From the NCBI GenBank assembly GCA_963843665.1, contig CAWJLH010000011.1, forward strand, positions 33,677 through 97,676: DNA of 64,000 nt. The letters run 5' to 3'. Numbering within the stretch: the stretch's first letter is position 1; every line of letters starts with the position of its first letter. The DNA comes from an uncultured Caryophanaceae bacterium. Lineage in GTDB: Bacteria > Bacillota > Bacilli > Bacillales_A > Planococcaceae. This document shows positions 8,939-63,895 of the stretch, piece by piece. Under the pieces are notes generated by a model that was not told the origin of the DNA, made no database searches, and saw only the letters and a list, made by a program, of their open reading frames with translations. The position numbers were made by a program, and so were the translations under genes.

Positions 8939-9508
8939 TCATTTAGCTTCAGCGGTCCGAGTGTATAGAAGATGTGTCGATTTCAATCTATTTCGAACAG
9001 CAATACCGGCCCAGGCTGCCATGACCGCTTTTAATACGCCCACAATCAGAAAAGGAGCAAAACCGCCTGTAAATGCAGCAGTCCATGAAAGGTTTGCAAT
9101 AATTTTCAACCAAACCGTACCAAAAGTTAATGCAACAAACATTCCCAAGATGTTTGCAATGACTGCGTTTTTAATTGAAAAGCTGGTTTTTTCAAGAAAA
9201 TAACCTATGATAAATGCTGTTGGGATGAACCCTACTAAATACCCTCCAGTAGGTCCGAACAGGCTACCTAACCCCCCAGACATCTGAGCAAATACTGGTA
9301 TGCCAATCGCTCCCATGCATAAATAAATGACGATTGAAATTGTCCCATAGCGTGCGCCCAATATGGTTGCGGCAAGTCCGATAGCCAACGTTTGTCCGGT
9401 GATAGGGACTAAAGGTAATGGAATTGTAACTTGTGCAAGTACACCGATAATTGCAGCAAATAAAGATGAAACAATCATCATTCGTAATTTTAATCTTGAT
9501 TCTGGCAT
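8939..9508 (-). CDS. bioY: Biotin transporter BioY (ECF S-component)
   Basis: VPITGQTLA, GAIGIPVFA and GPTGGYLVGF; hydrophobic, 189 aa. Confidence 0.95.
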   Translation of the reverse strand: MPESRLKLRMMIVSSLFAAIIGVLAQVTIPLPLVPITGQTLAIGLAATILGARYGTISIVIYLCMGAIGIPVFAQMSGGLGSLFGPTGGYLVGFIPTAFIIGYFLEKTSFSIKNAVIANILGMFVALTFGTVWLKIIANLSWTAAFTGGFAPFLIVGVLKAVMAAWAGIAVRNRLKSTHLLYTRTAEAK

Positions 9509-9528
9509 TGTGTGAAAATCCTCCTTTG

Positions 9529-9555
9529 GTTAACTTGGAATTACACTTAGTTTAC
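9529..9555. promoter_or_regulatory. Putative BirA operator upstream of bioY
   Basis: GTTAAC-N15-GTTTAC, matching the known Bacillus BirA palindrome layout, 21 bp upstream of the bioY ATG. Confidence 0.7.
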
Positions 9556-9632
9556 TCATTGATTGTATATCAAACAATTTGCATTCGTCAATATGATTAT
9601 TTCAAAGGGCTGTTGCTGAGTAACGACTATAT

Positions 9633-9682
9633 GAAAAAGCCAGTGACCCAAACAATTCGAAATCGTTTGAGAAACTGGCTTT
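9633..9682 (-). terminator. Terminator of the que operon
   Basis: AAAAAGCCAGT...ACTGGCTTT hairpin immediately after the queE stop, with T-tract on the minus strand. Confidence 0.7.
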
Positions 9683-9684
9683 GT

Positions 9685-10392
9685 TTAGACGCCGCGTTTG
9701 TTCCCCCATACTAGCGCATGTAGCTGAGGTAATACTTTGGCATCATTCATAATTGGCGAGTGTACTGTATGTTCAATTAACCACTCGTAGCGATTCAACA
9801 ATTTCGATACGAGTTGTGCATCATCGGTAGTTGTTGTATCATCATTTCCTGTCTGCAAAAAGAAAGGATAGGACGGATAACGGCGATGTATTTCCTCTGC
9901 AAATTTAAAATCCGTTTCATTGAAAATGACAATTTTTAAACTGGCATTCGAATTAGCCAGCTTTTTCATAAATGCATCCAGTTTTTCGAAATCCGTAACC
10001 ATTCCTGAACTCGGTGGTTTCGGAGAAAGGGTGACATCATCTATTTTCAATAACCAATCCTGCCAAAAAGTGGCTTGGGTTTCAACCGCGACTTTCCATC
10101 CTTGTGCATGACAAAGGTCAACGAGCTCTCCAATGCCTTTATGTAGGGCAGGGTTTCCTCCTGATATCGTCACATGTGAAAAAGATTGCCCCCCGATTGC
10201 TTGGAGTTTCTCAATAATTTCACTAGGCTGTTTTAAAACGCTCTTACCTGTACCATCCCATGTAAAACTGGAATCACACCACGAACAAGAATAGTCGCAG
10301 CCAGCAGTGCGGACAAACATTGTTTTTTGTCCAATAACCATTCCCTCTCCTTGAATCGTGGGACCAAATACTTCCATCACAGGAATCTTCAT
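9685..10392 (-). CDS. queE: 7-carboxy-7-deazaguanine synthase (radical SAM)
   Basis: EVFGPTIQGEG, CDYSCSWCD (CxxxCxxC) and LPQLHALVWGN.RGV. Start overlaps the queD stop (ATGA). Confidence 0.95.
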   Translation of the reverse strand: MKIPVMEVFGPTIQGEGMVIGQKTMFVRTAGCDYSCSWCDSSFTWDGTGKSVLKQPSEIIEKLQAIGGQSFSHVTISGGNPALHKGIGELVDLCHAQGWKVAVETQATFWQDWLLKIDDVTLSPKPPSSGMVTDFEKLDAFMKKLANSNASLKIVIFNETDFKFAEEIHRRYPSYPFFLQTGNDDTTTTDDAQLVSKLLNRYEWLIEHTVHSPIMNDAKVLPQLHALVWGNKRGV

Positions 10393-10814
10393 GGCCGTTC
10401 CTCCTGTCCAGGACGGTAGATGACATAGCTTGTCGGCGTTTCGCGAACAATTACTTGCAGACAAGTAGGTTTATTGTCTCTGGTCCGGAGAACATCTTGA
10501 ATGGAGGACCAAATCTGTTCTGCCAATCGTTCGGTCGTCGGGAAGTGTTCTTTAAATTCTGGATGATCGTTCAGCACAGAATGATCATATTTATCGTGTA
10601 TCAGCTTTTTAAGCTGTTTAAAATCAATCAGAAACCCGAGTGTATCCAGCTCATTTCCACCAATGGTCACATTGATATGATACGTATGGCCATGCATGAC
10701 TTGGCATTTCCCAGCTTCTTCATGCGGGATGAAATGCGCTGCTGAAAAATGCATGTCTTTGTTTAATTCAAAACGATAGGCATGCTGAACTTGCGGATAA
10801 AATTGCTGCATCAT
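10389..10814 (-). CDS. queD: 6-carboxy-5,6,7,8-tetrahydropterin synthase
   Basis: FSAAH, C..MHGHTY, DFK.LK, PTTE and VRETPTS motifs. Confidence 0.95.
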
Positions 10815-11476
10815 TTGGCGGCACCTACTGACTTTTTGGATAAGTAAGCAGAAAGACCTTCATTGCGAAGTACACAAGCAGGGCATTCACCACAACCGGT
10901 ACTCGGTACTCCGTTATAGCAGGTAAGTGTTTTTTCCTGTACAAAGTCGAGCGCATCGAGCTCATCCGCCAATGCCCAAACATCGGACTTATTAAGCCAC
11001 ATTAATGGTGTATGAATGACAAATCGTCCGTCCATCGCCAAATTCAATGTTACATTCAATGATTTAATAAAATTATCACGGCAATCGGGATAGCCGCTGA
11101 AATCCGTTTCACTCACACCCGTGATTAAGTGCCGAGCACCGATTGCATCGGCATAGACCGCTGCAAAGGAAAGGAACAGATGATTCCTGCCTGGAACGAA
11201 TGTCGACGGCAATTCGCCATCCACTTCTTTCACTGCGATATCATCACGTGTCAAGGCATTTGCAGATAGCTGGTTGATCAGATTCATGTCCAGCACTTTA
11301 AAAGAAACGCCGAGTTCATCCGCAATTTTACGAGCGCACTCGATTTCGTCCGAGTGGCGTTGCCCATAGTCAAACGTCACTGTCGCGACTTCACGGAAAT
11401 TTTTCAATGCCCAAAATAGGCATGTCGTACTGTCTTGGCCACCACTGAAGACGACCACCGCTTTTTCATTTTTCAC
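10811..11476 (-). CDS. queC: 7-cyano-7-deazaguanine synthase
   Basis: [27 protein letters not shown] and CY...CG.CPAC. GTG start chosen 9 nt after AAGGAG. Confidence 0.96.
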
Positions 11477-11489
11477 TATCAACATCTCC

Positions 11490-11522
11490 TTAGTTTTTTA
11501 GAGAGGGAGTTTGCGAACCTCT
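11490..11522 (-). ncRNA. preQ1-I riboswitch
   Basis: Minus strand AGAGGTTCGCAAACTCCCTCTCTAAAAAACTAA matches the class I layout (AGAGGUUC-loop-CCUCU stem, A-rich tail, CUAA), directly 5' of queC. Confidence 0.92.
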
Positions 11523-11629
11523 TTTTTGGAACCTTGTTCATAATAACACACGAGTCGAGTATACGGGAGATAGGATGAATCGTCCTTTACAATAATAATC
11601 CTATTTGCCAATATGCTTACGATAAATAT

Positions 11630-11658
11630 GTATAATTTTTGTGGTAAGGTTCATCCTA
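11630..11658 (+). promoter_or_regulatory. sigmaG-like promoter
   Basis: GTATA-N17-CATCCTA upstream of the DUF1540 small ORF. Confidence 0.5.
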
Positions 11659-11679
11659 TAATAAAGGAGGTGTGTTGCC

Positions 11680-11835
11680 GTGTCTCAGGAAATTCTTTGT
11701 GAAGTGAATAATTGTAAGTTTTGGAGCTCTGGAAACAAATGTAGCGCGAAATCGATTTACGTTGTCAGTCAAAAAGGGAAACAAGCAGAGAGCAGTGAAG
11801 AAACGGATTGTAAAACATTCGTTCCAAGGGATTGA
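11680..11835 (+). CDS. DUF1540-like small Cys-rich protein (51 aa, absent from ORF track)
   Basis: Strong RBS AAAGGAGG, GTG start. MSQEILCEVNNCKFWSSGNKCSAKSIYVVSQKGKQAESSEETDCKTFVPRD shows the CxVxxC...C.A..I.V...ETDCKTF pattern. Confidence 0.85.
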   Translation: MSQEILCEVNNCKFWSSGNKCSAKSIYVVSQKGKQAESSEETDCKTFVPRD

Positions 11836-12078
11836 ACACGGCGGATTTTGGAACTAATTCAAGCTCTAAAAGCTTTGAGAAGGTCCGGAATCACACATAA
11901 GAAAGCCCTTTATTAAGGAAAACCTCCTTCTGTGATTGCCTATCACGGAAGGAGGTTTTTCTCATTTATTAAACTTTTTATGGCGTTATGTCAGTCGGTT
12001 AACCGAGCCGATTCCAACCCGACTCTACCCCGCATATCGTAGAGCAATGAATTATTTAACAAGGGGTGGAAATCTACG

Positions 12079-13866
12079 ATGAAGAAATACTTTGGCCATC
12101 ACAACCGAAAGAAACGACCCAATATTCTTTTTCTAATGGTTGATCAGGAACGATTCCCGACTGTCTATGAAACGGATGAATTACTGGAATGGCAAAAAGA
12201 AAATTTACTTGCACATGAAATGCTACGAAAAAACGGCATGGAATTTGTCAATCATTATGCAGGTAGCACAGCTTGTTCACCAAGTAGAACGACTTTGTAT
12301 ACAGGACAATATCCATCACTACACGGCGTCACCCAAACGCCGGGAGCTGCCAAACAATCATTTGACCCGGATCTGTATTGGCTCGATCCAAACACGGTTC
12401 CAACGATGGGCGATTATTTTCAGGCGGCAGGCTATGATACATTTTGGAAAGGGAAATGGCATGCATCGGATGAAGATATACTAATTCCAGGTACTAAAAA
12501 TGCCTATCTAAGCTATGATCCTATAACGGGTGTTCCTGATCATGCGCAAGAGAAGCTTTATGAAAAAGCGAATCGGCTAGATTCTTTTGGATTTTCCAAT
12601 TGGCTTGGCCCGGAACCCCACGGTGCAGATCCGCGAAATTCGGGGTCGTCCGCTAGAGTGGGTACGAGTGGTCGTGACGAGGTGTACGCTGCTGAAGTTG
12701 TCACACTAATCAACTCACTGGATGAATCAGCAAATTGCAATCAGCATGATAAGCCTTGGTTTATCATGTGTTCTTTGGTCAACCCGCACGATATTGCCTT
12801 ATATGGCGTATACTCCGCCATTTCCCCTAATTACAACTTTAAAGTTGACCCATCACTTCCACACATTCCACCGGCTCCGACAGTTGGGGAGTCACTCCTA
12901 ACAAAACCGACTGTCCATGAAAGCTATCGCGATACGTACCCAAAAATATTACAGCCGATTATTGACAATAATTTTTACCGCCAATTGTATTACAGCTTAA
13001 TGAAAAAAGCGGATGAAGAAATGCTGAAAGTGCTAAAGGCTCTCCAACAATCCAGCTTCTATGACAATACAATCGTTGTATTTACTGCGGATCATGGCGA
13101 ACAACTGGGCGCACACGGCGGTATGTACCAAAAGTGGTATTCAATGTATGAAGAATCCATTCATGTTCCATTCATCATTCATAATCCAAGTTTATTTCCA
13201 AAAGAAACATCCACAGAGATGTTAACGAGTCATGTTGACATCCTACCAACATTATTAGGCCTAACAGGCATCGACGCAGAAAAAGTCCAAGAAAAGCTTG
13301 TTAAAGACCATAATGAAGTCCATCCGTTAGTTGGTAGGAATCTGAAACCGTTTGTCTATGGGCATGATTCATTTTCTAGGGCAAATGAACCGCTCTATTT
13401 CATGACAGATGATGATATCTCGAAAGGTTTGCATCAAACGAATGCGGTGACAGGAAAACCGTATGAATCAGTTGTCCAACCGAGCCACATCGAAGCGGTC
13501 ATTACAACACTGGAAACCGGAACAGCGAATGAACGAGAGATTTGGAAATTTGCTCGTTACTATGATAACCCGCAGTTTTGGAGTGATCCAGGCGTTTCGG
13601 ATACGGTTATAACAAGGCAGGGCGATAGTTGTATGACCGAAACAAAAACAGAACCGGTACCAGAGCAATATGAACTGTATAATCTGACAAAGGATCCATT
13701 GGAAAGAATAAATTTAGCCGACCCATCACATGCAACAACAGAATCTACTGTCATTCAAAAACGATTGAGGAAACTACTATTCGAGCAATGCAAACAAAAA
13801 AGACTGACACCAACAAGCGGGGACGTTCCCGGAATGCCGCCATGTAGTGATATAGGAAAAAAATAA
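12079..13866 (+). CDS. Sulfatase (Cys-type, sulfatase-like hydrolase/transferase)
   Basis: RPNILFLMVDQ, signature CSPSR..LYTG, GKWH and FTADHG. Confidence 0.92.
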   Translation: MKKYFGHHNRKKRPNILFLMVDQERFPTVYETDELLEWQKENLLAHEMLRKNGMEFVNHYAGSTACSPSRTTLYTGQYPSLHGVTQTPGAAKQSFDPDLYWLDPNTVPTMGDYFQAAGYDTFWKGKWHASDEDILIPGTKNAYLSYDPITGVPDHAQEKLYEKANRLDSFGFSNWLGPEPHGADPRNSGSSARVGTSGRDEVYAAEVVTLINSLDESANCNQHDKPWFIMCSLVNPHDIALYGVYSAISPNYNFKVDPSLPHIPPAPTVGESLLTKPTVHESYRDTYPKILQPIIDNNFYRQLYYSLMKKADEEMLKVLKALQQSSFYDNTIVVFTADHGEQLGAHGGMYQKWYSMYEESIHVPFIIHNPSLFPKETSTEMLTSHVDILPTLLGLTGIDAEKVQEKLVKDHNEVHPLVGRNLKPFVYGHDSFSRANEPLYFMTDDDISKGLHQTNAVTGKPYESVVQPSHIEAVITTLETGTANEREIWKFARYYDNPQFWSDPGVSDTVITRQGDSCMTETKTEPVPEQYELYNLTKDPLERINLADPSHATTESTVIQKRLRKLLFEQCKQKRLTPTSGDVPGMPPCSDIGKK

Positions 13867-13870
13867 GAAA

Positions 13871-13903
13871 ATACGAGTTTATGAAAAAGTCATAAACTCG
13901 TAT
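13871..13903. terminator. Hairpin between convergent genes
   Basis: ATACGAGTTTATG-aaaaagt-CATAAACTCGTAT, 13-bp stem. Confidence 0.65.
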
Positions 13904-14712
13904 CATTTCATTTGATACGTATAATATGTATCGATTGGGATAAACAATCCGACTTTCCCATGCGTTTCATGTTCCAATGTGGCGAACACTACACCGATTA
14001 CTTGGCCGTCATGCTTCAGCACCGGACTGCCGCTATTCCCTCGATAGACAGGTGCTTTAATCATCATGACAGGTTCATCCCAATCCTTTAACAGGATTTC
14101 GCCAATAATCTTCCCTTCATTAGCAATGCCTGTAAAGCGCAGCGGATTGCCAATAAAGTAAATGGGTTCATTTTCTACAAAAGCCGGTTGGTCCGCAAGA
14201 GGTAAGAAGGGCAGATTGTTACCATCGACCTCTAATACAGCAAGGTCAATCGTCGGATAGGTTTCAACGACATTGGCGGAAAAACGACCGTCTTCCGGGA
14301 AACTGACAGATACTGTATCATTTCCTTCAACAACATGATAGTTCGTAAGTATCTTTCCTTCACTAGAGATGGAAAAGCCTGTTCCTTTGCTGTCGGCAGT
14401 CAAAATAACGACAACGGATTTTTTATAGGTGCTGATGTCTTCTTGCGTTGATAGTTGTGCGGAGGTCTTTAAAAAGTCGATGGCCGGTATGGAGTAAATT
14501 TCAAAAACTATGATGAATGTATTGACGACCATTACGATGGAAATTAGCCAAAATAACCATTTTGGAAAAGGTCGCTTCGGCTTGTTGTCCATTTTTTCGC
14601 AACCTTCTTTGGAAAGGGCCTCACGTTGGGCTTCCAACACTAACTCCTGCAGCTCTTCATCATCAATATCATTTTCGCCATGCTCGTATTGTTGTTTTTC
14701 TTCAGGATTCAT
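13903..14712 (-). CDS. Membrane-anchored trypsin-like (S1C) serine protease without PDZ domain
   Basis: One TM helix; catalytic triad motifs TNYHVV, DLAVL and GNSGSP. Confidence 0.9.
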   Translation of the reverse strand: MNPEEKQQYEHGENDIDDEELQELVLEAQREALSKEGCEKMDNKPKRPFPKWLFWLISIVMVVNTFIIVFEIYSIPAIDFLKTSAQLSTQEDISTYKKSVVVILTADSKGTGFSISSEGKILTNYHVVEGNDTVSVSFPEDGRFSANVVETYPTIDLAVLEVDGNNLPFLPLADQPAFVENEPIYFIGNPLRFTGIANEGKIIGEILLKDWDEPVMMIKAPVYRGNSGSPVLKHDGQVIGVVFATLEHETHGKVGLFIPIDTYYTYQMK

Positions 14713-29783: not shown

Positions 29784-30941
29784 ATGTTCACTATATTAAG
29801 AAAGATTGGAGGAAAACGGAGACTTCCGGAAAACTTACTTTCTATAAAAAAGGATTTAATGAATGATGATCGTGTTTCGATACAGGAAGAGCAGAACTTG
29901 TCCAATGAAGATCAGCTACTACTCCAATCAATCCGGTTAAAAACTGAACGGTTAAATGTAAATAATATTACCAGAACAAAAGCTTACCTCGACTTTTATA
30001 CGATTCATCCAGAAATCCACTGGGCATTCCTTGGCCATATGGTATCAAGGAATGGTGGATGGAACATGACAGACCTAAATGGAGAATTTCTTTCTAGACT
30101 GATGCACCAACAAACGAAACAAGATTTTTTCTCGTTTTTGGAACGTGGAAACTGGTTGATATTCCAGGATGCCTATCCACAGTTTCTACTCTATGGGGAG
30201 AGCAAATTCCAAAATCGGAATCTATTTTATTTATTGCCTTACTTGGAAGTCTCCCGATTTATGGAAGTGATTTGGAATCATTTCTGGAGAGACAGAGATT
30301 GCTATATCCTTGCAATTGCGCTCGTCATAAATGAACAAAATTACTTGGAGAGCAGAATCGTGCAAAATCCTTTATATAGGAAAAAGGTTATTCAGACGCT
30401 GGAATTCATGCTTCAAGATTTTTTATCATTCAATCATATATTGTTTCCATACAATGAGATTGGAAAGCAGGGAGGGAAGGCGGCTCTTGTTGGACTGACG
30501 CTCCATTATTTCGGTTCACTTCATGAGCGTATTATACTTGGAAAGCGACTCTACCAATTGTTGTTTCAAGACAGGGAATTGCTAGAGGACGTGCATCGCT
30601 GGGCATCCGCGCATCCGCATACGGGGTCACGAAAGGATTATTGGCCGGATGTCTTTAATGATGTAAACGAAGGAGTGCCCGGAGCACCGATGACGAAAAG
30701 GCTAAAATCTTGCCTGTTAAGAAAGGGTGCGCTTCGGTTGTTTAGTCCGAGGCTTGAGTATGCGTGGCATACTGTCAACCATGCTACGGCAGAATCTGGT
30801 GAATGGTATGAGCATTGGTATATGATTGAATATTTATTAGAAGAAAAAGTACCGATCAATGGAAAGATAGTGGGGGGGTACTGTGAGACACTTGAAAAGC
30901 TCGAGCTTGCAACAATCGCCAAAACGACGATTTTTACGTAA
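29784..30941 (+). CDS. DUF2515 family protein
   Basis: NNITRTKAYLDFY..HPEIHWAFL.HMVSRNGGWNMTDL and HTGSR.DYW; RBS GGAGGTG. Confidence 0.8.
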   Translation: MFTILRKIGGKRRLPENLLSIKKDLMNDDRVSIQEEQNLSNEDQLLLQSIRLKTERLNVNNITRTKAYLDFYTIHPEIHWAFLGHMVSRNGGWNMTDLNGEFLSRLMHQQTKQDFFSFLERGNWLIFQDAYPQFLLYGESKFQNRNLFYLLPYLEVSRFMEVIWNHFWRDRDCYILAIALVINEQNYLESRIVQNPLYRKKVIQTLEFMLQDFLSFNHILFPYNEIGKQGGKAALVGLTLHYFGSLHERIILGKRLYQLLFQDRELLEDVHRWASAHPHTGSRKDYWPDVFNDVNEGVPGAPMTKRLKSCLLRKGALRLFSPRLEYAWHTVNHATAESGEWYEHWYMIEYLLEEKVPINGKIVGGYCETLEKLELATIAKTTIFT

Positions 30942-54862: not shown

Positions 54863-55303
54863 GTGAATAGATTGGAAGGTTTTTTACGTCATTTTTTGCG
54901 TCTCTACCGACCATTGATCACATCGCTGAATGAGCTATTAAGTCCATTTGAACTCTCCTATTCGTTATGGCAGGTTATATATTACGTGAAACATGCTGGA
55001 CCTTCGACGCTTGTCGATATTTCAACTTACTTCGAAGTTGAAAAGCCTACCATTACAAGAAGGGTCCACCGTTTGGAAAACCTTCAAATCGTCAAGCAAA
55101 TACCTGGTACCGATCGACGTGAAAAGATTATTCAGCTGACGGATATAGGGGAAGAGATTTACCAAGTGTGCCGTGGAAAAATAACGGACTTGGAGAAAAG
55201 CGTGATGGAAGGGATTCCGAAAGAAAAGCAATCTGTTCTTTTTCAACTATTACCCGAACTACGGGAAAACATTCTGGATAAAGAAGGTCATAATCATGAA
55301 TAA
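54863..55303 (+). CDS. MarR family transcriptional regulator
   Basis: VEKPTITR.V.RLE, DRREK.I.LT..G. Confidence 0.92.
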   Translation: MNRLEGFLRHFLRLYRPLITSLNELLSPFELSYSLWQVIYYVKHAGPSTLVDISTYFEVEKPTITRRVHRLENLQIVKQIPGTDRREKIIQLTDIGEEIYQVCRGKITDLEKSVMEGIPKEKQSVLFQLLPELRENILDKEGHNHE

Positions 55304-56483
55304 GCCAAGATTATGGACGAAGGATTTTCTCGTAGTGTCATCTATCAATTTCTTGATCACACTAACCTTTTATTCGTTAGTGGTGACGATTGCAGTTTAT
55401 GCGGTAGATGAATTCAACGCTTCTGAGAGCCAAGCGGGACTTGTAACGGGTATTTTTATCATCGGGACATTATTCGGACGGTTATTTATCGGACGATATA
55501 TCGATTCGATTGGTCGCAAAAGAACTTTGTTTATTGGTTTACTTTTTTTTACATTAACCGCCATTTTATATTTTGTAAATCTCGGACTTACTTTCCTGCT
55601 GATAAACCGTTTAATCCACGGAATTGCGATGGGGGTGGCGAGTACGGCGACCGGGACGATTGTGGCGCAAACAATACCGGCTACAAGAAGAGGGGAAGGC
55701 ATCGGCTATTACAGCATGAGTGCAACTTTGGCTACTGCGATTGGACCATTCATCGGGCTATTCATGAGCCAGCATACAAGTTATCAAATGATTTTTATCT
55801 TCTGTCTTGGATTAGGTGTCATCAGTCTTCTAATCGCCTTCTTCCTCCATATTCCGGTAGTGGAAATACCGCTGAAAACTTCTGAAAAGAAAGGATTTAA
55901 ACTATCCAACTATATTGAACCCAGAGCATTGCCGATTGCCTTTGTTACGCTAGCAATCGCACTCTGTTACTCCAGTGTCCTTTCTTTTATAAATTTCTAC
56001 GCGATTGAGATAGATTTAGTTGAAACAGCAGGCTTTTTCTTCTTGGTCTACGCAATAGCAATACTCGTCTCTCGCCCATTTACCGGTCGTTTAATGGATT
56101 TGAAAGGTGCGAACTTCGTTATGTTTCCTGCCTTTGTACTTTTTATAGCAGGCTTACTTCTTTTAAGTACAGCGCAAAGTGGTATCATCATGTTGATTGC
56201 CGGCGCACTTATCGGTCTTGGCTTCGGAAATATGCAATCGAGCACCCAGGCAATTGCCATTAAATTGACACCCACTCATCGGATGGGCCTTGCAACATCA
56301 ACTTTTTTTATCGCTCTTGATGCAGGCCTTGGATTCGGTCCCTATCTCCTCGGATTCCTGATTCCGGCAACCGGATACAGTACGATGTATGGCATTATGG
56401 GCATCCTGGTTCTAGCAACTTCCGTTCTATATTATTTCTTACACGGCAAGAAAGAGCGTATAATCGAAGAATTATATACTTGA
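55296..56483 (+). CDS. MFS transporter
   Basis: GRYIDSIGRK, RRGEGIGYY; overlaps the marR stop. Confidence 0.92.
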   Translation: MNKPRLWTKDFLVVSSINFLITLTFYSLVVTIAVYAVDEFNASESQAGLVTGIFIIGTLFGRLFIGRYIDSIGRKRTLFIGLLFFTLTAILYFVNLGLTFLLINRLIHGIAMGVASTATGTIVAQTIPATRRGEGIGYYSMSATLATAIGPFIGLFMSQHTSYQMIFIFCLGLGVISLLIAFFLHIPVVEIPLKTSEKKGFKLSNYIEPRALPIAFVTLAIALCYSSVLSFINFYAIEIDLVETAGFFFLVYAIAILVSRPFTGRLMDLKGANFVMFPAFVLFIAGLLLLSTAQSGIIMLIAGALIGLGFGNMQSSTQAIAIKLTPTHRMGLATSTFFIALDAGLGFGPYLLGFLIPATGYSTMYGIMGILVLATSVLYYFLHGKKERIIEELYT

Positions 56484-56578
56484 GTAAATCCAGATTTATT
56501 GATCGAATCATGCAATGCCCCTCTCCTTGTATTTGTATTAGCTTAGGATGGAAATGTCTAAGGTAGCACAAGCATTTA

Positions 56579-56607
56579 GGATAAAAGCAAAATCATTTTC
56601 ATACACT
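56579..56607 (+). promoter_or_regulatory. sigmaE-like promoter
   Basis: GGATAAA-N14-CATACACT upstream of the yqhV-like gene. Confidence 0.6.
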
Positions 56608-56687
56608 CTTAAAAGTACAAGCGGCGAGATTGAAAAGTTCGTCGATTGCTCGTGATATTGCATGAGAGTGAAGAGGGGGCAATTTGA

Positions 56688-56954
56688 TTGATTGAAAAGG
56701 CGCTATTAATGATTATCCTTTTGCGGATTTTTTCAGGAAGTGTAGATATCACGGCTGCGATGTTTATGTATAAATTTAATGACTTGGAAAAAGCATTTTA
56801 TATTAACACATTGTTGGCATTAGTAGGCCCAGTTGTGCTGATCATTACAACGGGAATCGCATTATTTGGTCTAGCTGAAAAGATTTCAGTGACACGTATG
56901 GTTTGCCTGTTCAGCGGAATCGTTCTCATTCTTTATAGTCTGAAAGCTGATTAG
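56688..56954 (+). CDS. yqhV: YqhV/DUF2619 family membrane protein
   Basis: LR.FSG..D.TAA..M.KFN..EKA..IN..LALVGP. Confidence 0.82.
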   Translation: MIEKALLMIILLRIFSGSVDITAAMFMYKFNDLEKAFYINTLLALVGPVVLIITTGIALFGLAEKISVTRMVCLFSGIVLILYSLKAD

Positions 56955-57202
56955 GAACGAAGGGTTTAATAGAAAGCTACCCCCATTCTCGATGAATGGG
57001 GGTTTTCACGTCGTCTACTATAAGTTTATATGTATTCGCTTGATTGTAGCTAAGTGAGGCAAAACACCAAATACCAAATGCATCTAGGATATTAATTGCC
57101 CGTGTAGAGATTGAAAAATTTACTTTTAGATCATAGTAGGTTAAACTAACGTAGATAATGATTGTCCGGGTTAAGATTAATGGAAAGAAAGTGGTGAAGA
57201 CC

Positions 57203-57682
57203 ATGCAAATGAAGACCGGCGTTGAGCAATCTGTGTACGCCATTCTGTTACTTAAGATGTTACCGGATAAAGCCGTACTGCCTGGAGAGGCAATTAGTAA
57301 ACAAATGGGAACATCACCGACTTATTTTCAGAAATTGTTAAGGAAATTAGTTAGGGCGGACTTGATTACATCGGTTCCGGGAGTGAAGGGCGGCTTTAAA
57401 TTAAAGAAAAAACCTGAAGAGATTCGGGTGTATGATGTTTATCTTGCAGTAGAAGGTCAACAATCTCTTTATTCCCCGAGCGGAATACTGGATGACATGC
57501 TTGAATTGGAACAAGACGATGGTTGCTGTTTATTGACGGACTTGATGGATGAGGCTGAATCCACTTGGAAAACGGTATTGAAGCGTGAAACCATAGCATC
57601 TTTATATGAAGAAACAACTAATCGTTTTCCTGATAAAGTAGAGGACTTAAAAGAGTGGATAATTAGAAAAATGGTCTTATAA
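57203..57682 (+). CDS. Rrf2 family transcriptional regulator (no Fe-S Cys triad)
   Basis: SPTYFQKLLRKLV.ADLI.SVPG.KGGF.L; only cysteines are a CC pair. Promoter TTTACT-N17-TAAACT at 57119-57147. Confidence 0.9.
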   Translation: MQMKTGVEQSVYAILLLKMLPDKAVLPGEAISKQMGTSPTYFQKLLRKLVRADLITSVPGVKGGFKLKKKPEEIRVYDVYLAVEGQQSLYSPSGILDDMLELEQDDGCCLLTDLMDEAESTWKTVLKRETIASLYEETTNRFPDKVEDLKEWIIRKMVL

Positions 57683-57711
57683 GAAAAGGCGCGTAAATAG
57701 GAGTAAACTAA

Positions 57712-58659
57712 ATGGCTACTATTCAAACACATCATGGTTTTGCACGTACCTTTAAAAAACATCACTTAACGCTAGGACTAACATTTCCTTTGGAATCATA
57801 TAGGGGAAGCTTTCCAACGATGGATTTGGAAGCGCAAATGACACTGGCGAAAAAGGCGGAAAAGCTAGGGTTCGCCTCCTTGTTTGTAAGAGATTCTCCG
57901 CTATACGACCCGAATTTCGGTGATGTCGGAGCCCTTTACGATCCGTGGGTTTTTCTTTCTTATGTAGCAGCACACACTGAACAAATTGCACTGGGTACTG
58001 CAAGTATTGTGACAACGTTGCGACATCCCCTTCACGTAGCAAAGGCAGCTGCATCATTAGACAAAATAGCGAATCAACGCTTTTTATTGGGTGTTGCGAC
58101 CGGAGACCGCCCCATCGAATTCCCAGCATTTAGAGTGGAGCAAAACGAAAGTGCAGCATTGTTTAAAGAGTCTATAGCTGTAATGAAAAAAATCTGGGGA
58201 GAATCCTTCCCGCAATTTGAGACAGAGAGGGTCGAAATGCTTCAAGGAGATATTGTCCCCAAACCGGTATTCTCAGATATCCCTGTTTTTGGAACTGGCT
58301 ATTCAGGCCAAACGATTGAATGGTTAGCTGAGCATACGGATGGTTGGCTATTTTATTCGCAAGGGGTTAATGAACAGCGCGAACTTGTTAAGAAATGGCG
58401 AGAAGCAGCCGGTCGCTTCAAACCATTTAGTCAATTTTTAGCGATTGACTTATCGGAACATCCAAATGAAGCGCCGAAACCAATCCAGGGTGGGTTTAGA
58501 TCAGGTACTGGGTTTTTAATAGATTATCTCCGTGCCTATGAGGATGCGGGTGTGAATCATGTGATGTTCGGAATGAAGTACGGAACGCGTCCTGCAGATG
58601 AAGTGATTCAGGAATTGGGGGAATATGTGCTTCCTCATTTCCCTACAAATATATCATGA
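57712..58659 (+). CDS. LLM-class (luciferase-like) oxidoreductase
   Basis: RD.PLYDP.FGD, I.LGTASIV..LRHP and GVATGDRP.EF. Confidence 0.9.
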   Translation: MATIQTHHGFARTFKKHHLTLGLTFPLESYRGSFPTMDLEAQMTLAKKAEKLGFASLFVRDSPLYDPNFGDVGALYDPWVFLSYVAAHTEQIALGTASIVTTLRHPLHVAKAAASLDKIANQRFLLGVATGDRPIEFPAFRVEQNESAALFKESIAVMKKIWGESFPQFETERVEMLQGDIVPKPVFSDIPVFGTGYSGQTIEWLAEHTDGWLFYSQGVNEQRELVKKWREAAGRFKPFSQFLAIDLSEHPNEAPKPIQGGFRSGTGFLIDYLRAYEDAGVNHVMFGMKYGTRPADEVIQELGEYVLPHFPTNIS

Positions 58660-58675
58660 AAGAAGTGGAAGACAG

Positions 58676-58921
58676 ATGATTAAAGGTTTAGACCGAATAA
58701 ATGAATTGGCAAAAAAAGAGCGCGAAATCGGTTTGACGAATGCTGAAATGGTTGAACAAACGGTCTTGCAGCAAGATTATTTACGAGAAATCCGCGGGCA
58801 AGTTCTTAACACGGTTTCAGGGATGACGGTGCTCGATCCACTTGGAAATGATGTCACACCCGAAAAAGTTCGTGAACAGAAAAAATTGCAAGCCAATCAG
58901 GAAGCGGAGAAAGGACGTTAA
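58676..58921 (+). CDS. DUF896 (YnzC-like) small protein
   Basis: RINELAKK....GLT..E..EQ..L...YL and V.DP.GNDVTPEK. Confidence 0.88.
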   Translation: MIKGLDRINELAKKEREIGLTNAEMVEQTVLQQDYLREIRGQVLNTVSGMTVLDPLGNDVTPEKVREQKKLQANQEAEKGR

Positions 58922-58925
58922 TTAA

Positions 58926-59930
58926 ATGAGATTAAGTGTACTGGACCAAGCACCGATTACAAAAGGGAATCGTGCACCGGATGCTTTGAAAAAAGCAGAA
59001 GAACTGGCCATTTTAGCAGATGAATTAGGCTATCATCGAATGTGGATGGCGGAGCATCATGGTACAACCGCTTTTGCAAGTTCAGCTCCGGAAGTGACGG
59101 CTGCTCATCTGGCTGCAAAAACGAAAAGTATTCGAATTGGCACCGGTGGTATCATGATGATGCATTATTCACCATTGAAATTGGCCGAAGTGTTTAAAAC
59201 ATTGAGTGCACTTTCACCGGGGCGCATTGATTTTGGTGTTGGGCGCGCTCCAGGAGGGGATAATCATTCCATCTATGCGCTATCAGAAGGACGTCAACCG
59301 ATGGTAAATAATATGTATGAAAAATTGGATACGGCCCTGCAATTGATCAACGATGAAGTACCTGTAGACAGTTTGTACAATAAAACAATCGCAACTCCGT
59401 CCCAAGTCGTTTTGCCAGAAGCTTGGCTGTTGGGATCTAGCGGTAACAGTGCCATACAAGCCGGACGTCGGGGTATTGGCTATTCGTTTGCGCAGTTTTT
59501 CAACGGCGAGATGACGAAAGAAATTTTAGAGGCTTATAAAAGTAATTTTCAGCCTTCCGCTTTTATGGAGAAACCGGAAATCACGGTTTCCTATATGGTG
59601 ACTACGGCTGAAACAAAAGAAGAAGCTGAGTTTGAGGCAGTACCTCAAGATATTGCACGTCTCATGCTAATGAAGGGCAGAATCGGTCAATCGTTGACAC
59701 CTGAAGAAGCCCGAGACTATCCATTGACAGAAATGGATCGAATGACCATTCAACAAAATCGTAAACTGCATCTAGTAGGAGCGGTGGAAGAAATCGCAAC
59801 ATTACTGCAAGAAGAACAAGCGCATTATGGATTCGATGAAGCGATGATTTGCAGCATCCCTCATTCACAAGAGAAACGTTTGAATGTGTATCGCTTATTG
59901 GCACGGGAATTGTTTTTAGAAAGGAAGTAA
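58926..59930 (+). CDS. LLM-class flavin-dependent oxidoreductase (luciferase family)
   Basis: [25 protein letters not shown] and GVGRAPG. Confidence 0.92.
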
Positions 59931-59934
59931 TGAA

Positions 59935-60813
59935 ATGAAGGACTATTTAGTAAAAGCAATTGCGTATAATGATCAAGTCCGTGCATATGCAGTGATTACA
60001 ACAGAAACTGTTGGAGAAGCCCAACGTCGCCATCAGACATGGCCAACTGCATCAGCTGCGCTTGGTCGATCCATGACAGCCAGTGTAATATTGGGGGCAA
60101 TGCTTAAAGGCGAGGAAAAAATAACGGTTAAAATAGATGGCGGCGGACCGATCGGCACCATTCTGGTAGATGCAAATACGAAAGGGGAAGTTCGGGGATA
60201 TGTTACAAATCCTCAAACTCATTTTGACCTAAATGCACAGGGGAAGTTAGATGTGCAGCAAGCAGTTGGAACAAATGGAATGCTCACAGTATCAAAAGAT
60301 ATCGGATTACAACAACCCTTTGTCGGACATGTTCCACTCATCTCAGGTGAATTAGGTGACGACTTTACATCCTATATCGTTCATTCAGAGCAAGTTCCTT
60401 CTTCTGTAGGGGTAGGTGTTTTAGTAAATCCGGATCAGACAATTCAAGCCGCGGGTGGATTCATCATTCAACTGCTACCTGGTACAAATGATGAGACAAT
60501 TACGAGGATTGAAGAACGTTTGAAAGAAATTATGCCCATTTCTTCAATGGTTGAGCAAGGGATGACGCCAGAACAGATACTTGAACAAGTACTGGGTGCC
60601 GGAAATGTGAAATTTTTAGAGAAGATGCCTATCCATTTCCAATGTCAATGTTCTAAAGAGAGAATTACCAATGCCATCGTCAGCTTGGGAAGTGAAGAGA
60701 TCCAAGACATGATTCAGACTGATGGAAAAGCTGATGCTCAATGTCATTTTTGCAATGAAAATTACCATTTTTCAAAAAAAGATCTGGAATTATTATTGGA
60801 AGATGCAAGATAA
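59935..60813 (+). CDS. hslO: Hsp33 redox-regulated chaperone
   Basis: ASAALGR, G.VPLISGE.G.D and Zn-switch CQC...CHFC. Confidence 0.95.
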
Positions 60814-60966
60814 CAAAGAAACTATTCATGTGACATCACAATCACTAAAAGCCATTCTCATATTTTTATTGAGATGGCTTCTTCTGTTTACTCTTCAAGC
60901 AGATCCAATAACACAATTACAAAACTAGCAGATTATATGAAAAAAATTCTACGATTAAAGTACCGA

Positions 60967-61275
60967 TTATGTGCATTGAAATGAGATGATTTGGTCTAAA
61001 TCCGTTCCCCACGGAATCCACACAGCGCCGGTCCATTTATAACCTGTTGTTGAAACATAATCGATGTAAGTTGGATGGAACCAAAAAGAACTTCGATTGA
61101 CGAGCCTTATATACGTATCACGATATAAACAACCACGCAAAGCTCCTGGATCTATAGAAAATGGCATAGGTTGATGTTCAGGTACAGTGGAAGGGGGTGG
61201 GGTAGTGGGGGCAATCCCTTTTTCTGTAGGTGAGTGTTGGGGCTTATGTGGGTCCGGCGTGAATGAGTCAGTCAA
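60967..61275 (-). CDS. Pro-rich hypothetical protein (spore-coat-like)
   Basis: TTG start after AAGGAGG; IDPGA.RGCLYR.TYI.L.N..SFWF.P pattern. Confidence 0.7.
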   Translation of the reverse strand: MTDSFTPDPHKPQHSPTEKGIAPTTPPPSTVPEHQPMPFSIDPGALRGCLYRDTYIRLVNRSSFWFHPTYIDYVSTTGYKWTGAVWIPWGTDLDQIISFQCT

Positions 61276-61369
61276 ATTGTACGCCTCCTTTGGAAGTATC
61301 ATCGAAATAGCATATGTAAGTTAAATAATTTGGGAACGGCCATTCCTGGAATTTTACTTTGATCTGGAC

Positions 61370-61420
61370 AAAAAAGAGCGAGTCATTCCACGATCTAATC
61401 GGGAATGACTCGCTCTTTTT
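61370..61420 (-). terminator. Terminator of the pha operon
   Basis: AAAAAAGAGCGAGTCATTCC...GGAATGACTCGCTCTTTTT. Confidence 0.85.
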
Positions 61421-61442
61421 AATAGAACTTGACGTTTAAAGT

Positions 61443-62531
61443 TTACTTTGAACGAGTTGTCAACCAGTTGTCTACAAGCGGATAGAGTTCATTGTTTGCT
61501 TTACGTCCAACAACGATTGAAACGTGTCCTGTATCCATCAAGTGATACGTCTTGTCTTTACTTGATATTTTATTCATCAACGGTTCAACTTGCTTAGGAT
61601 TGGCAATATTATCACGTTTACCGGCAATATTTAAGACATTTGCTGTAATCTGACCGAGATCAACTTTACGTCCACGGATGTAAAGCTGATCGTTAATAAG
61701 CTTATTTTCCTGGTAAAATTCGCGGATCCATTGACGATATGCTTCGCCTGGGAATGGGATTCCATCATTCAACCATTTTTGCATAAGCTTCCAATTTTGA
61801 ATAAACGCCTCATTATCCGCACGATTTGCCAGTCCGACGTAAGGTCCGTAAACATTAGCAATCGGGTTTAATAATTTGTTCCCGAAGTCAATCATATCAT
61901 GCGGAATAAGTCCAAGTGTATCGACCAGTTTATCTAAATTGAAGTAACGTTTATCTAAGAAGTTCGAATAGAGGCCAGCATCTTCAAAATCAAATGGGCT
62001 CGTCATGAATATTAAATTTCGAATCGGCAAATTTGGATGGAGTGCAGCAAAAATCGAAGTCATTGTTCCACCCATACAATACCCTAATAAACTGATTTCG
62101 TCAGCCTCTGATGTTCGTAACACCTTTTTGATGGCACGCGGAATGTAATCCAGGATAAAATCATCGAACTTTAAATGACGGTCCTCGTGACCAAATGTGC
62201 CCCAATCTAGTAAGTACACATCATGTCCTTGGTTTGTCAAATGTTCGATTAAACTATTCCCAGGTGATAAGTCCAAGATATAAGGTTTGTTAATCAATGC
62301 GTAAATCATTAAAATCGGCACTTTGTTCGTCTTCTTATTGTTTGGCTGATAGCGATAAAGTTTTGCTTTATTTTTAGTCCAGATTACTTCTTTCGGTGTT
62401 TGCCCGACTTGAGGCTCTGGATCCGTCGTCAAAACTTCAGTTACCCGTTTCAGTCGATGGTAGCCGTCTTTGTATTCATCGGGCATTTGATCCACCCAAC
62501 TATCCAATTCTTTTACGCTCGAATAAATCAT
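61443..62531 (-). CDS. phaC: PHA synthase catalytic subunit (class IV, class III-like PhaC)
   Basis: GQTPKE, YALINKPYILDL, lipase box GYCMGG, catalytic D (KRDNI) and GHVS. Confidence 0.95.
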   Translation of the reverse strand: MIYSSVKELDSWVDQMPDEYKDGYHRLKRVTEVLTTDPEPQVGQTPKEVIWTKNKAKLYRYQPNNKKTNKVPILMIYALINKPYILDLSPGNSLIEHLTNQGHDVYLLDWGTFGHEDRHLKFDDFILDYIPRAIKKVLRTSEADEISLLGYCMGGTMTSIFAALHPNLPIRNLIFMTSPFDFEDAGLYSNFLDKRYFNLDKLVDTLGLIPHDMIDFGNKLLNPIANVYGPYVGLANRADNEAFIQNWKLMQKWLNDGIPFPGEAYRQWIREFYQENKLINDQLYIRGRKVDLGQITANVLNIAGKRDNIANPKQVEPLMNKISSKDKTYHLMDTGHVSIVVGRKANNELYPLVDNWLTTRSK

Positions 62532-62615
62532 TATTCTCCTCCTAAAACAAGTTTTCCGGTCACAGATAGGGCTTCCTTATCGAAAACGACTATGCGTGAT
62601 AGGAATAAAGCATTA

Positions 62616-63401
62616 TTACATGTACAGACCGCCATTTACATTGATTGTCTGCCCTGTTATATAGCTAGATTTTGCCAGGTAGATAACCGCCTCGGCAATT
62701 TCGTCCACTTGGCCAAGACGTTGCATCGGTACTTTTGAAATAATAGATTGCTTGACATTCTCCGGCATCGCCGCAACCATTTCAGTTTCGATAAAGCCTG
62801 GGCAGACTGCATTTACAGTGATACCGTTTCTTGCTGTCTCCAACGCGAGGGATTTTGTGAATCCGATCATACCGGCTTTGGAAGCAGAATAGTTAGTTTG
62901 ACCAAATCCACCAGCTTGTCCGATGATTGAACTGATATTGATGATACGGCCTGATTTTTGCTCCAACATTTCATTGATAACTGCGGAAGTTGTCCGATAT
63001 ACACTATTTAAATTCACATCGATGACTTCGTTCCAATCATCTTCAGACATTTTTCGGAAAGTACGATCTCTTGTAATACCGGCATTATTGACAAGAATAT
63101 CAATTTTACCGTAACGTTCTTTTACCGCGCCGATAAAATGTTGAATACCATTGCCATCTGAAACGTCGGCTTTGATCGCATAAGATGTGCCACCCTCTTC
63201 TTCAATCGCTTTTACAACTGCTGCGGCACTTTCAGTATTTGACTGATAGTTGATTGCCACGTAAGCTCCGTTTCGCGCCAATTCTTTTGCGATTGCAGCG
63301 CCAATACCGCGAGAGCCTCCAGTTACGACTGCTACTTTTCCTTCAAGTGGTTTTAGGGTAACCTTTTTTCCGATTTCTTCTGTGATTGTCATTGTGTGCA
63401 C
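62616..63401 (-). CDS. phaB: Acetoacetyl-CoA reductase
   Basis: TGGSRGIG, NNAGITRD, NISS and YSASK; lies between phaR and phaC. Confidence 0.93.
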   Translation of the reverse strand: MHTMTITEEIGKKVTLKPLEGKVAVVTGGSRGIGAAIAKELARNGAYVAINYQSNTESAAAVVKAIEEEGGTSYAIKADVSDGNGIQHFIGAVKERYGKIDILVNNAGITRDRTFRKMSEDDWNEVIDVNLNSVYRTTSAVINEMLEQKSGRIINISSIIGQAGGFGQTNYSASKAGMIGFTKSLALETARNGITVNAVCPGFIETEMVAAMPENVKQSIISKVPMQRLGQVDEIAEAVIYLAKSSYITGQTINVNGGLYM

Positions 63402-63445
63402 GCTCCTTCTGATGTGGTTAGATGTATAGAATTTCTAAATCTATG

Positions 63446-63895
63446 TTATTTTTTCGTACTTTGAGCAGGGGCTACGGCCGCAGCTGTCTGCTGTACTCTC
63501 GTTTCATCTATGAAAGTTAGCACCCTATCCAATTTTTTGTCTAAATTTGCAACAGCCCTTTTCAGCTGACTGATATCTTTTGTTGTTTCGTCGTTTGCCG
63601 TTGCATCATCGATTTTATCTTCAAGATCATCCACTTTGTTCTCCAGGTTGATAATGAGTGATGCAACGTTTGAAATTTCGTCGCGTGTAGGCATGTTCAC
63701 TTGTTTCAAATAAGTTTCGGTCATTTTAGAAACAACCTCTTGATACTGTAAATAACTATTCAGCGTCTGCCCCATTCCTTCAGAGAAAGATTCTTTCCCT
63801 AATGATTCCTGGAGTACATCGCTCCAAGATGCTTCAGTTTTTTCATAGATGTCTTTCCACAACGTGAATGGATCAAATTGCATTTTCTGAGTCAA
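63446..63895 (-). CDS. phaR: PHA synthase subunit PhaR
   Basis: FDPF..WK..Y.KTE..W and NMPTR.EI..VA.LIINLE.KVD; TTG start. Confidence 0.9.
   Translation of the reverse strand: MTQKMQFDPFTLWKDIYEKTEASWSDVLQESLGKESFSEGMGQTLNSYLQYQEVVSKMTETYLKQVNMPTRDEISNVASLIINLENKVDDLEDKIDDATANDETTKDISQLKRAVANLDKKLDRVLTFIDETRVQQTAAAVAPAQSTKK

Follow-up and report, generated by a model that had tools for sequence, protein, structure and literature searches.

A conserved Rrf2-headed operon in Planococcaceae places a probably relocated hslO behind a predicted thiol-type repressor

Within a 64,000-nucleotide stretch (hereafter the window) of contig CAWJLH010000011.1 from an uncultured Caryophanaceae bacterium (Planococcaceae in GTDB), we analysed a unit of five plus-strand genes encoding, in this order, an Rrf2-family regulator, a luciferase-like monooxygenase (LLM1), a DUF896 protein, a second luciferase-like monooxygenase (LLM2) and the chaperone Hsp33 (HslO). 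Comparison across genomes gives good support to the view that these genes form a conserved regulatory unit. With moderate confidence, we read it as an autoregulated stress operon in which a cluster-free Rrf2 repressor, with C109 as its thiol/electrophile switch, has captured a relocated hslO. The kind of system is known, namely the thiol-based Rrf2 repressors of detoxification operons such as HypR, SaiR and SifR; what is new is the Rrf2 subfamily, which has an operator of its own, and the cargo, in particular what is likely the sole hslO. A preliminary description of this DNA had supposed the combination to be undescribed, and our search of the literature on Rrf2, Hsp33, LLM, DUF896 and Planococcaceae likewise returned no description of the five-gene unit or of the Rrf2 subfamily.

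The gene calls separate the five genes by gaps of 29, 16, 4 and 4 bp, exactly as first described, and a Shine-Dalgarno-like sequence stands 5' of each of them. The unit is bounded by two hairpins (Table 1). The one at its 5' boundary is a palindrome that, read on the plus strand, is followed by TTTTCAC; the one 3' of hslO has a fold z-score of -2.7 (91-nt stretch). An Rfam search of positions 56400-61500 returned no credible structured RNA, the sole match falling far under its gathering score. The five genes form one tightly packed unit behind a single candidate promoter and would be co-transcribed. A search of sequencing runs for this sequence returned soil or groundwater DNA runs and one unrelated metatranscriptome, with which it had no words in common. 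Judged by gene order, the arrangement is far beyond chance because it recurs in about 35 genomes. Its flanking and upstream genes vary between genera and genomes, and the unit therefore appears to move as a block. Could the adjacency nevertheless lack regulatory meaning, with a separate promoter or constitutive read-through driving hslO and Rrf2 controlling only itself or distant genes? Two genomes do carry DUF896-hslO without an Rrf2 gene, but the 4-bp gaps leave no room for a promoter ahead of LLM2 or hslO, about 35 genomes of several genera preserve the order and orientation of the genes while the flanks change, and the consensus scan lists no plus-strand terminator-like site between the two boundary hairpins. 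We regard this explanation as very improbable.

The promoter and operator predictions come from an alignment of the 160 nt 5' of the Rrf2 start in all loci, which comprised 37 distinct regions. Three elements were conserved: a TTTACTTTT block, a -10-like hexamer and an inverted repeat directly abutting the hexamer. In related loci the -10 hexamer reads TAAACT, TAGACT, TATTAT or TAAGAT. The call of a candidate promoter rests on this cross-genome conservation and not on a consensus scan; the single promoter proposed earlier is in keeping with the conserved position and sequence of these elements across several genera. The full consensus of the inverted repeat is TAACnnGGATAA-N3-TTATCCnnGTTA, with a 15-mer core (positions 57153-57167 in the window; consensus GGATAA-N3-TTATCC). 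Allowing up to two mismatches, the core stands 36-96 nt 5' of the start of Rrf2 in 41 of the 42 loci that carry this gene; elsewhere, the 1.8 Mb of locus sequence holds 103 such sites. The 64-kb window has a single further match, at 30379, which does not exceed the number expected by chance. The candidate operator overlaps the end of the -10 element and the expected transcription start (about 57154-57157), and this position predicts repression by promoter occlusion as well as autoregulation. We infer that Rrf2 binds the predicted operator and acts as a repressor.

The operator also bears on the start of the regulator gene. The metagenome annotation gives a longer Rrf2 open reading frame (ORF) of 174 aa beginning at ATG 57158. 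This start is doubtful because it lies inside the predicted operator, because homologues are 159-160 aa long and because a Shine-Dalgarno-like GGTGAAG precedes position 57203; the annotation probably places the start 45 nt too far 5', at a codon that is not used. As a separate observation, several Planococcus loci carry a second near-operator sequence, GTATAA(G/A)(G/C)CTTATCC, 9-11 kb downstream of hslO (L022 19728, L025 17808, L027 18531, L030 18396 and L043 20848), which may be either another binding site or conserved coding sequence.

The identity of the regulator as an Rrf2 protein is clear from profile scores (PF02082, 96.9 bits against 30; TIGR00738, 91.1 against 73.3) and from Foldseek, whose top matches were all Rrf2 proteins. 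It belongs to a tight subfamily: when 1.8 billion cluster representatives were searched exhaustively, seven reached E<=1e-30; a few relatives of 45-49% identity came next, followed by generic Rrf2 proteins of about 30-38%. The nearest paralogue clusters are named only by the generic label "Rrf2 family".

The protein contains two cysteines, C108 and C109, and residues 1-107 have none. As the preliminary description had stated, it thus lacks the iron-sulfur cysteines of IscR and NsrR: the three-cysteine ligand set of IscR, NsrR and RirA is absent, and the equivalog models of these three regulators score 27-41 bits against cut-offs of 182-275. In that group the ligating cysteines, C93, C99 and C105 in NsrR for example, are spread over the connector and the beginning of the helix. 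The adjacent CC pair that had been singled out is present in the window, but only its second member is a constant feature. C109 is invariant in 121 close homologues, C108 occurs in 110 of the 121, and relatives at 29-48% identity keep the C109 position and not that of C108. Because only C109 is conserved, the regulator is better assigned to a monothiol type than to a vicinal-dithiol type, and sensing by the CC pair was down-weighted. In the AlphaFold (AF2) model (predicted local distance difference test score, pLDDT, 76), residues 89-107 form a disordered connector, and C108 and C109 occupy the first turn of the helix 108-128.

RsrR of Streptomyces venezuelae, a [2Fe-2S] protein (PDB 6HSD), is the best solved relative in sequence (E 1e-10, residues 2-155) as well as in fold, and the match runs over the full length including the extra C-terminal helices. 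This match favours an alternative in which Rrf2 holds an RsrR-like subunit-bridging iron-sulfur cluster and senses redox state, nitric oxide or iron-sulfur status instead of thiol modification. In the alignment, two of the four RsrR ligand positions (E8, H12, C90 and C110) are kept, as E8 and C109, and C108 provides an extra thiol in most members. The other two ligands, in contrast, are replaced by Y12 and P92, and the allosteric switch W9 is replaced by Q9, with Y12 and Q9 invariant in 34 homologues. An RsrR-type cluster is improbable because H12, C90 and W9 have given way to Tyr, Pro and Gln; C108, moreover, is missing in 11 of the 121 close homologues and in the more distant relatives, and one cysteine per subunit fits the monothiol class (PMC9218516).

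Among the remaining classes, CymR is not indicated (equivalog NF047409, 36.4 bits against a cut-off of 195). The HypR-type pair of a cysteine in the turn of the helix-turn-helix (C33) and a helix-start cysteine (C99) is not present, as there is no equivalent of C33, and the SaiR-type C-X7-C connector pair is likewise absent, the two cysteines being adjacent and only one of them invariant. What the regulator does share with the SifR/YwnA monothiol proteins is a single conserved cysteine at the N-terminus of the dimerisation helix. It falls outside their sequence cluster (sequence similarity network (SSN) cluster 6 of PMC9218516, about 40% identity or more to SifR/YwnA) and lacks their TGTAA-N9-TTACA operator; the match to YwnA (1XD7, E 1.7e-7) covers residues 13-91 only, that is, the winged helix. 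By analogy, then, the regulator would function most like the SifR/YwnA monothiol class while standing outside that cluster and using a different operator. The conservation pattern supports its placement with the cluster-free, thiol-type Rrf2 proteins.

The chaperone at the 3' end of the unit is a full-length Hsp33 (NF001033, 378.9 bits against 244; PF01430 over residues 3-280). Its only four cysteines form the zinc-cysteine switch C237-x-C239...C270-x-x-C273 and are conserved in 83 of 83 aligned Hsp33 sequences. A 148-kb contig from a soil metagenome (L001) encodes an identical protein, and the nearest named genomes are those of Sporosarcina, with 84-89% identity for Hsp33 and 85-91% for Rrf2. 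Hsp33 is the textbook example of a chaperone activated post-translationally by redox chemistry, and its transcription is usually treated as a heat-shock or housekeeping matter.

To place this gene in context, Hsp33 relatives were scanned at one genome per species (best 80 of 416 relatives, by exact shared 8-residue words), and the five window proteins together with the neighbours of the canonical Bacillaceae hslO were mapped onto 88 loci. The survey separated two arrangements. The canonical class comprises 47 loci, all from Bacillaceae-type genera or metagenome-assembled genomes (Bacillus, Cytobacillus, Peribacillus, Robertmurraya and others), with the order tilS-hprT-ftsH-coaX-hslO-(yacD)-cysK-folP-dusB-lysS. 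The other class, Rrf2-linked, numbers about 35 loci in which hslO stands behind Rrf2 and has none of the canonical neighbours; its genera are Sporosarcina, Paenisporosarcina, Jeotgalibacillus, Lysinibacillus, Planococcus and Planomicrobium, together with Solibacillus and Domibacillus, which were found via Rrf2. The earlier remark that the gene lies outside its ftsH-coaX place is therefore true of the whole class. The two arrangements are mutually exclusive, no genome among the 88 loci being found in both, and the Hsp33 scan gave one hslO locus per genome, bar duplicate assemblies of one Cytobacillus strain.

The sequences of the chaperones behave as those of orthologues. Median Hsp33 identity is 71% between the classes and 76% within each, and in a neighbour-joining tree the Rrf2-linked clades fit family-level groupings, with no long-branched group of paralogues. 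Because the classes are exclusive, the identities are close, the tree is compatible with the families and the zinc cysteines are kept, the evidence favours a relocated orthologue that moved in the Planococcaceae lineage over a divergent second copy. Where the preliminary description had left a choice between a second and a relocated Hsp33, the latter part is upheld and the former disfavoured; no second hslO would be expected in the source genome.

The Rrf2-linked loci vary in content. The full five-gene form occurs in 11 loci, and in two more (L006 and L011) with extra LLM2 or Rrf2 matches nearby; its genera are Sporosarcina, Paenisporosarcina, Jeotgalibacillus, Lysinibacillus, Solibacillus and Domibacillus. 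LLM2 is missing from L003 and L005, LLM1 from L009, and both from Planococcus, so that the unit is reduced in Planococcus and Planomicrobium to Rrf2-DUF896-hslO (15 loci) or Rrf2-hslO (three loci). Both LLMs thus appear to be dispensable to the unit. L011 (Sporosarcina sp. E16_8) shows two local peculiarities: its LLM2 (9128-9970) aligns over 281 residues only, with a 5' gap, and may be a frameshift or pseudogene, and a distant second Rrf2 (12729-13091, 29% identity) follows hslO after about 2 kb.

Outside the hslO-linked loci, a two-gene unit of Rrf2 and a single LLM, with no chaperone, was found in Paenibacillus lautus, Bacillus sp., Psychrobacillus vulpis and B. thuringiensis. Its Rrf2 shares 75-78% identity with that of the window, an unusually high degree of conservation, and has the same operator. 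The LLM is of the LLM2 type in Paenibacillus, Bacillus sp. and Psychrobacillus (75-83% identity in the first two) and of the LLM1 type in B. thuringiensis, where an insertion sequence with an rve-family transposase has cut it to 157 aa (L083 6512-8358, L084 6153-7963) beside an intact Rrf2 and operator. This distribution points to Rrf2-LLM as a pre-existing module, widespread in Bacillales, joined by hslO and DUF896 in one lineage; Planococcus would then have lost the LLMs and kept Rrf2 and hslO. The preliminary description had Hsp33 recruited together with two LLMs into a redox-inducible unit, and here the direction has to be reversed: hslO and DUF896 would be additions to a widespread pairing of Rrf2 with a single LLM.

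The same two-gene module, widespread and probably ancestral, suggests another account of the regulator. Rrf2 could be a ligand-responsive repressor for a compound oxidised by the LLM, catabolic or detoxifying in purpose and without thiol chemistry, with hslO and DUF896 as passengers. Some neighbours of the module would suit such a role: meta-cleavage genes and a glyoxalase in Psychrobacillus, an FAD aromatic hydroxylase in B. thuringiensis, and a nitroreductase and a MarR protein in Bacillus sp. suggest aromatic metabolism. These neighbours, however, are not conserved between genomes. In Planococcus, sensing of an LLM substrate cannot be the conserved job of the regulator because both LLMs have been lost while Rrf2, the operator and hslO are kept. 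The sole invariant cysteine, moreover, occupies the site with which SifR and HypR sense. We therefore think this account unlikely.

Two loci hold DUF896-hslO without Rrf2. In L061 (Planococcus dechangensis, 9600-9760), the TTTATTT promoter block stays before DUF896-hslO and the operator has decayed (GGATATGTCCCTGTCC), so that the locus looks like a natural derepressed variant. In L081 (Mesobacillus maritimus chromosome, 1.88 Mb; Bacillaceae), DUF896-hslO (9755-10882) is placed between pncA-like and mnmA-like genes, and its Hsp33 branches within the Planococcaceae clade. A canonical ftsH-linked hslO of M. maritimus was not found among the 80 loci, and the L081 pair may represent a transfer or replacement.

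DUF896 accompanies hslO more closely than the regulator does. In about 30 loci, among them the two without Rrf2, the gene directly 3' of it is either hslO or LLM2 with hslO behind; because it stays with hslO even there, a functional tie between DUF896 and Hsp33 is suggested. The protein matches only the general DUF896 domain, the equivalogs NF002711, NF002422 and NF002452 scoring 66, 48.6 and 40.6 bits against 112, 143 and 144. Its nearest structure is YnzC (2HEP), a protein reported to be SOS-regulated in bacilli; here the gene is inside the Rrf2 operon and not beside lexA.

Both LLMs are firm members of their families. LLM1 scores 390.3 bits for TIGR03571 (cut-off 303.9), and LLM2 scores 341.3 bits for TIGR03558 (cut-off 166.95) and 206 bits for the E. 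coli YhbW model NF007802. Their nearest structures, 2B81 for LLM1 (E 1.4e-80) and 4US5 for LLM2, are deposited only as "luciferase-like monooxygenase". Hints at the level of the family point to stress. B. subtilis YwcH, which we take to be a member of the TIGR03558 family, is encoded in the nfrA-ywcH operon, reported to be heat-induced. The ywcH gene is also among the Spx-controlled genes induced by allicin (PMC6943732). E. coli YhbW was the most vanillin-induced protein, at 77-fold; it has been reported in the SoxRS regulon, and its induction by vanillin was independent of soxS (PMC6561319).

We propose the following mechanism. In the unstressed cell, an Rrf2 dimer on the operator would block its own promoter and silence its own gene, the LLMs, DUF896 and hslO. 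C109, at the N-terminus of the dimer helix, would face the DNA-binding domain of the partner subunit, where it could be modified by an oxidant or electrophile that reacts with thiols (hypochlorite, disulfide stress, quinones or aldehydes). This modification would free the repressor from DNA, so that thiol or oxidative stress would induce the operon as one message. Hsp33, once made, would be activated by oxidative unfolding of its zinc-cysteine centre, forming a second redox layer, and the LLM enzymes would act on the small-molecule stressor or on a damage product. In evolutionary terms, a pre-existing Rrf2-LLM module would have captured a housekeeping hslO that had moved from the ftsH-coaX-hslO-cysK region.

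Several points weigh against this interpretation. A single cysteine cannot identify the signal and could be structural, and C99 of HypR is also required for DNA binding (PMC6067689). In both sequence and fold, the solved protein closest to the regulator, RsrR, contains an iron-sulfur cluster. The two hexamers make a weak promoter, agreeing with the consensus at 8 of 12 positions and going unlisted by the consensus scan, and the window operator itself has two mismatches to the core consensus. The source genome may also hold a second hslO, the search having covered the best 80 of 416 relatives by exact 8-residue words. On the enzymatic side, no flavin reductase of the NfrA kind is encoded in the operon, and purified YhbW was reported to have no activity in one assay (PMC6561319).

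A more elaborate circuit can also be imagined, in which a monothiol Rrf2 is dedicated to the sole Hsp33, DUF896 acts as a partner of Hsp33, and the LLMs clear or repair an oxidant- or electrophile-derived metabolite. We consider this two-tier version rather doubtful as a whole. If DUF896 did have a partner role, it might be a co-chaperone, a client adaptor or a modulator of activity, and the circuit would offer a first handle on LLM enzymes whose genes respond to stress in E. coli and B. subtilis.

The closest parallels by description are the cluster-free Rrf2 sensors. In Staphylococcus aureus, HypR-merA is governed by an Rrf2 sensor of hypochlorite and disulfide stress; the HypR operator is a 12-3-12 inverted repeat of a type typical of other full-length Rrf2 sites, and C99 lies at the N-terminus of the dimer-interface helix, where SaiR C96 and YwnA C97 are the same conserved cysteine (PMC6067689). 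SifR senses through C102, which corresponds to YwnA C97 (PMC9218516). Like HypR, the window regulator is a cluster-free Rrf2 protein and predicted repressor encoded by the first gene of the operon it would repress, has a 12-3-12 repeat overlapping the -10 element and a conserved helix-start cysteine, and stands before genes that, as with the HypR target, include candidate oxidant-defence flavoenzymes. It differs in that HypR forms a C33-C99 intersubunit disulfide whereas the window protein has only C108 and C109, in its half-site (GGATAA rather than a TGTAAC type) and in its targets (LLMs and Hsp33 rather than MerA). HypR is set beside the window regulator by description; among solved Rrf2 proteins, RsrR is nearer to it than YwnA.

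The quinone sensors SifR (S. pneumoniae) and YwnA (B. subtilis) resemble the window regulator in having one helix-start cysteine and no iron-sulfur ligands, and the genes under their control encode flavin or NAD(P)H oxidoreductases that detoxify electrophiles (PMC9218516). Release from DNA upon alkylation of the cysteine by quinones is a defining trait of their class. They differ in sequence cluster, in operator (TGTAA-N9-TTACA as opposed to GGATAA-N3-TTATCC) and in cysteine motif (CPV as opposed to (C)CLL). To our knowledge, no chaperone belongs to the SifR or YwnA regulon. SaiR-spxA2 of Bacillus anthracis differs both in its cysteines, a C-X7-C pair (PMC9218516) as opposed to an adjacent pair with one invariant member, and in its effector, which is the transcription factor SpxA2 and not a chaperone.

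The cargo, too, has known counterparts. The canonical Bacillaceae hslO encodes the same chaperone, a full-length HslO with 68-75% identity and four zinc cysteines, but it has ftsH and coaX as neighbours where the window has an Rrf2 operator. E. coli yhbW shares with LLM2 its TIGR03558 family and is induced by oxidative or electrophile stress; yhbW and B. subtilis nfrA-ywcH, however, answer to SoxS and Spx and not to an Rrf2 regulator, and the NfrA flavin reductase has no equivalent in the operon described here.

If the likely sole hslO is indeed under a thiol-type Rrf2 across a bacterial family, stress defence there would be wired at two levels, and the unit would be a clean natural case of a housekeeping gene rewired by relocation. 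The operon is also a tractable entry to a conserved Rrf2 subfamily, to DUF896/YnzC function and to two stress-induced LLM families. Should the signal prove to be ordinary disulfide or quinone stress, the operon would extend the HypR/SifR/SaiR group usefully but incrementally.

Table 1. Coordinates of the five-gene unit, its predicted control elements and its neighbours in the window.
Feature	Position	Strand	Description
MarR-family regulator	54863-55303		upstream of DUF2619 gene
MFS transporter	55296-56483		8-nt overlap with the MarR gene
DUF2619 gene	56688-56954		upstream neighbour, closed by hairpin 56979-57003
GC-rich hairpin	56979-57003	minus (terminator scan)	10-pair stem; 5' boundary of the unit
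-35 element (candidate)	57119-57124	+	TTTACT; within the block conserved in most of 37 distinct upstream regions
-10 element (candidate)	57142-57147	+	TAAACT; 17 bp past -35; position-conserved, abuts operator
Candidate Rrf2 operator	57147-57173	+	27-bp 12-3-12 inverted repeat, TAACGTAGATAA-TGA-TTGTCCGGGTTA
Rrf2-family repressor (predicted)	57203-57682	+	159 aa; PF02082, E 1.4e-27; 2 Cys
LLM1	57712-58659	+	315 aa; TIGR03571 (BA3436) luciferase-like flavin oxidoreductase; no Cys
DUF896 (YnzC-like)	58676-58921	+	81 aa; small helical protein; PF05979, 82.8 bits against 24.2; no Cys
LLM2	58926-59930	+	334 aa; TIGR03558 (MsnO8/YhbW) luciferase-like flavin oxidoreductase; 1 Cys
HslO/Hsp33	59935-60813	+	292 aa; NF001033 equivalog; redox-regulated holdase chaperone; 4 Cys
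Terminator-like hairpin	60850-60879 (element to 60889)	+	U-rich tail; 3' of hslO; 3' boundary of the unit
111-aa ORF	60967-61302	minus	convergent with hslO; proline-rich N-terminus
PhaC-like synthase	61443-62531	minus	polyhydroxyalkanoate cluster, 61443-63895
Short-chain dehydrogenase	62616-63401	minus	polyhydroxyalkanoate cluster
PhaE-like subunit	63446-63895	minus	polyhydroxyalkanoate cluster

Downstream of the unit, the near-identical contig L001 carries about 3.25 kb of extra DNA (10880-14290) between hslO and the convergent ORF, which the window is without (about position 60956). The extra DNA consists of a lysine riboswitch (RF00168, 97.5 bits) and, behind it, the genes of an amino-acid ABC transporter (binding protein, permease and ATPase). 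A link of the operon to sulfur or cysteine through this transporter was rejected because the transporter has its own lysine riboswitch and is missing from the window, and because the Rrf2 is not CymR. The difference is a strain-level indel, independent of the operon.

The convergent ORF itself has no Pfam or NCBIfam match and is 97% conserved in L001 and L002. Beyond it lie the polyhydroxyalkanoate genes, which in L001 are followed by a PadR regulator and the phasin PhaP. On the other side, L003, L005 and the Domibacillus locus L091 likewise have the MarR-MFS pair upstream of the operon.

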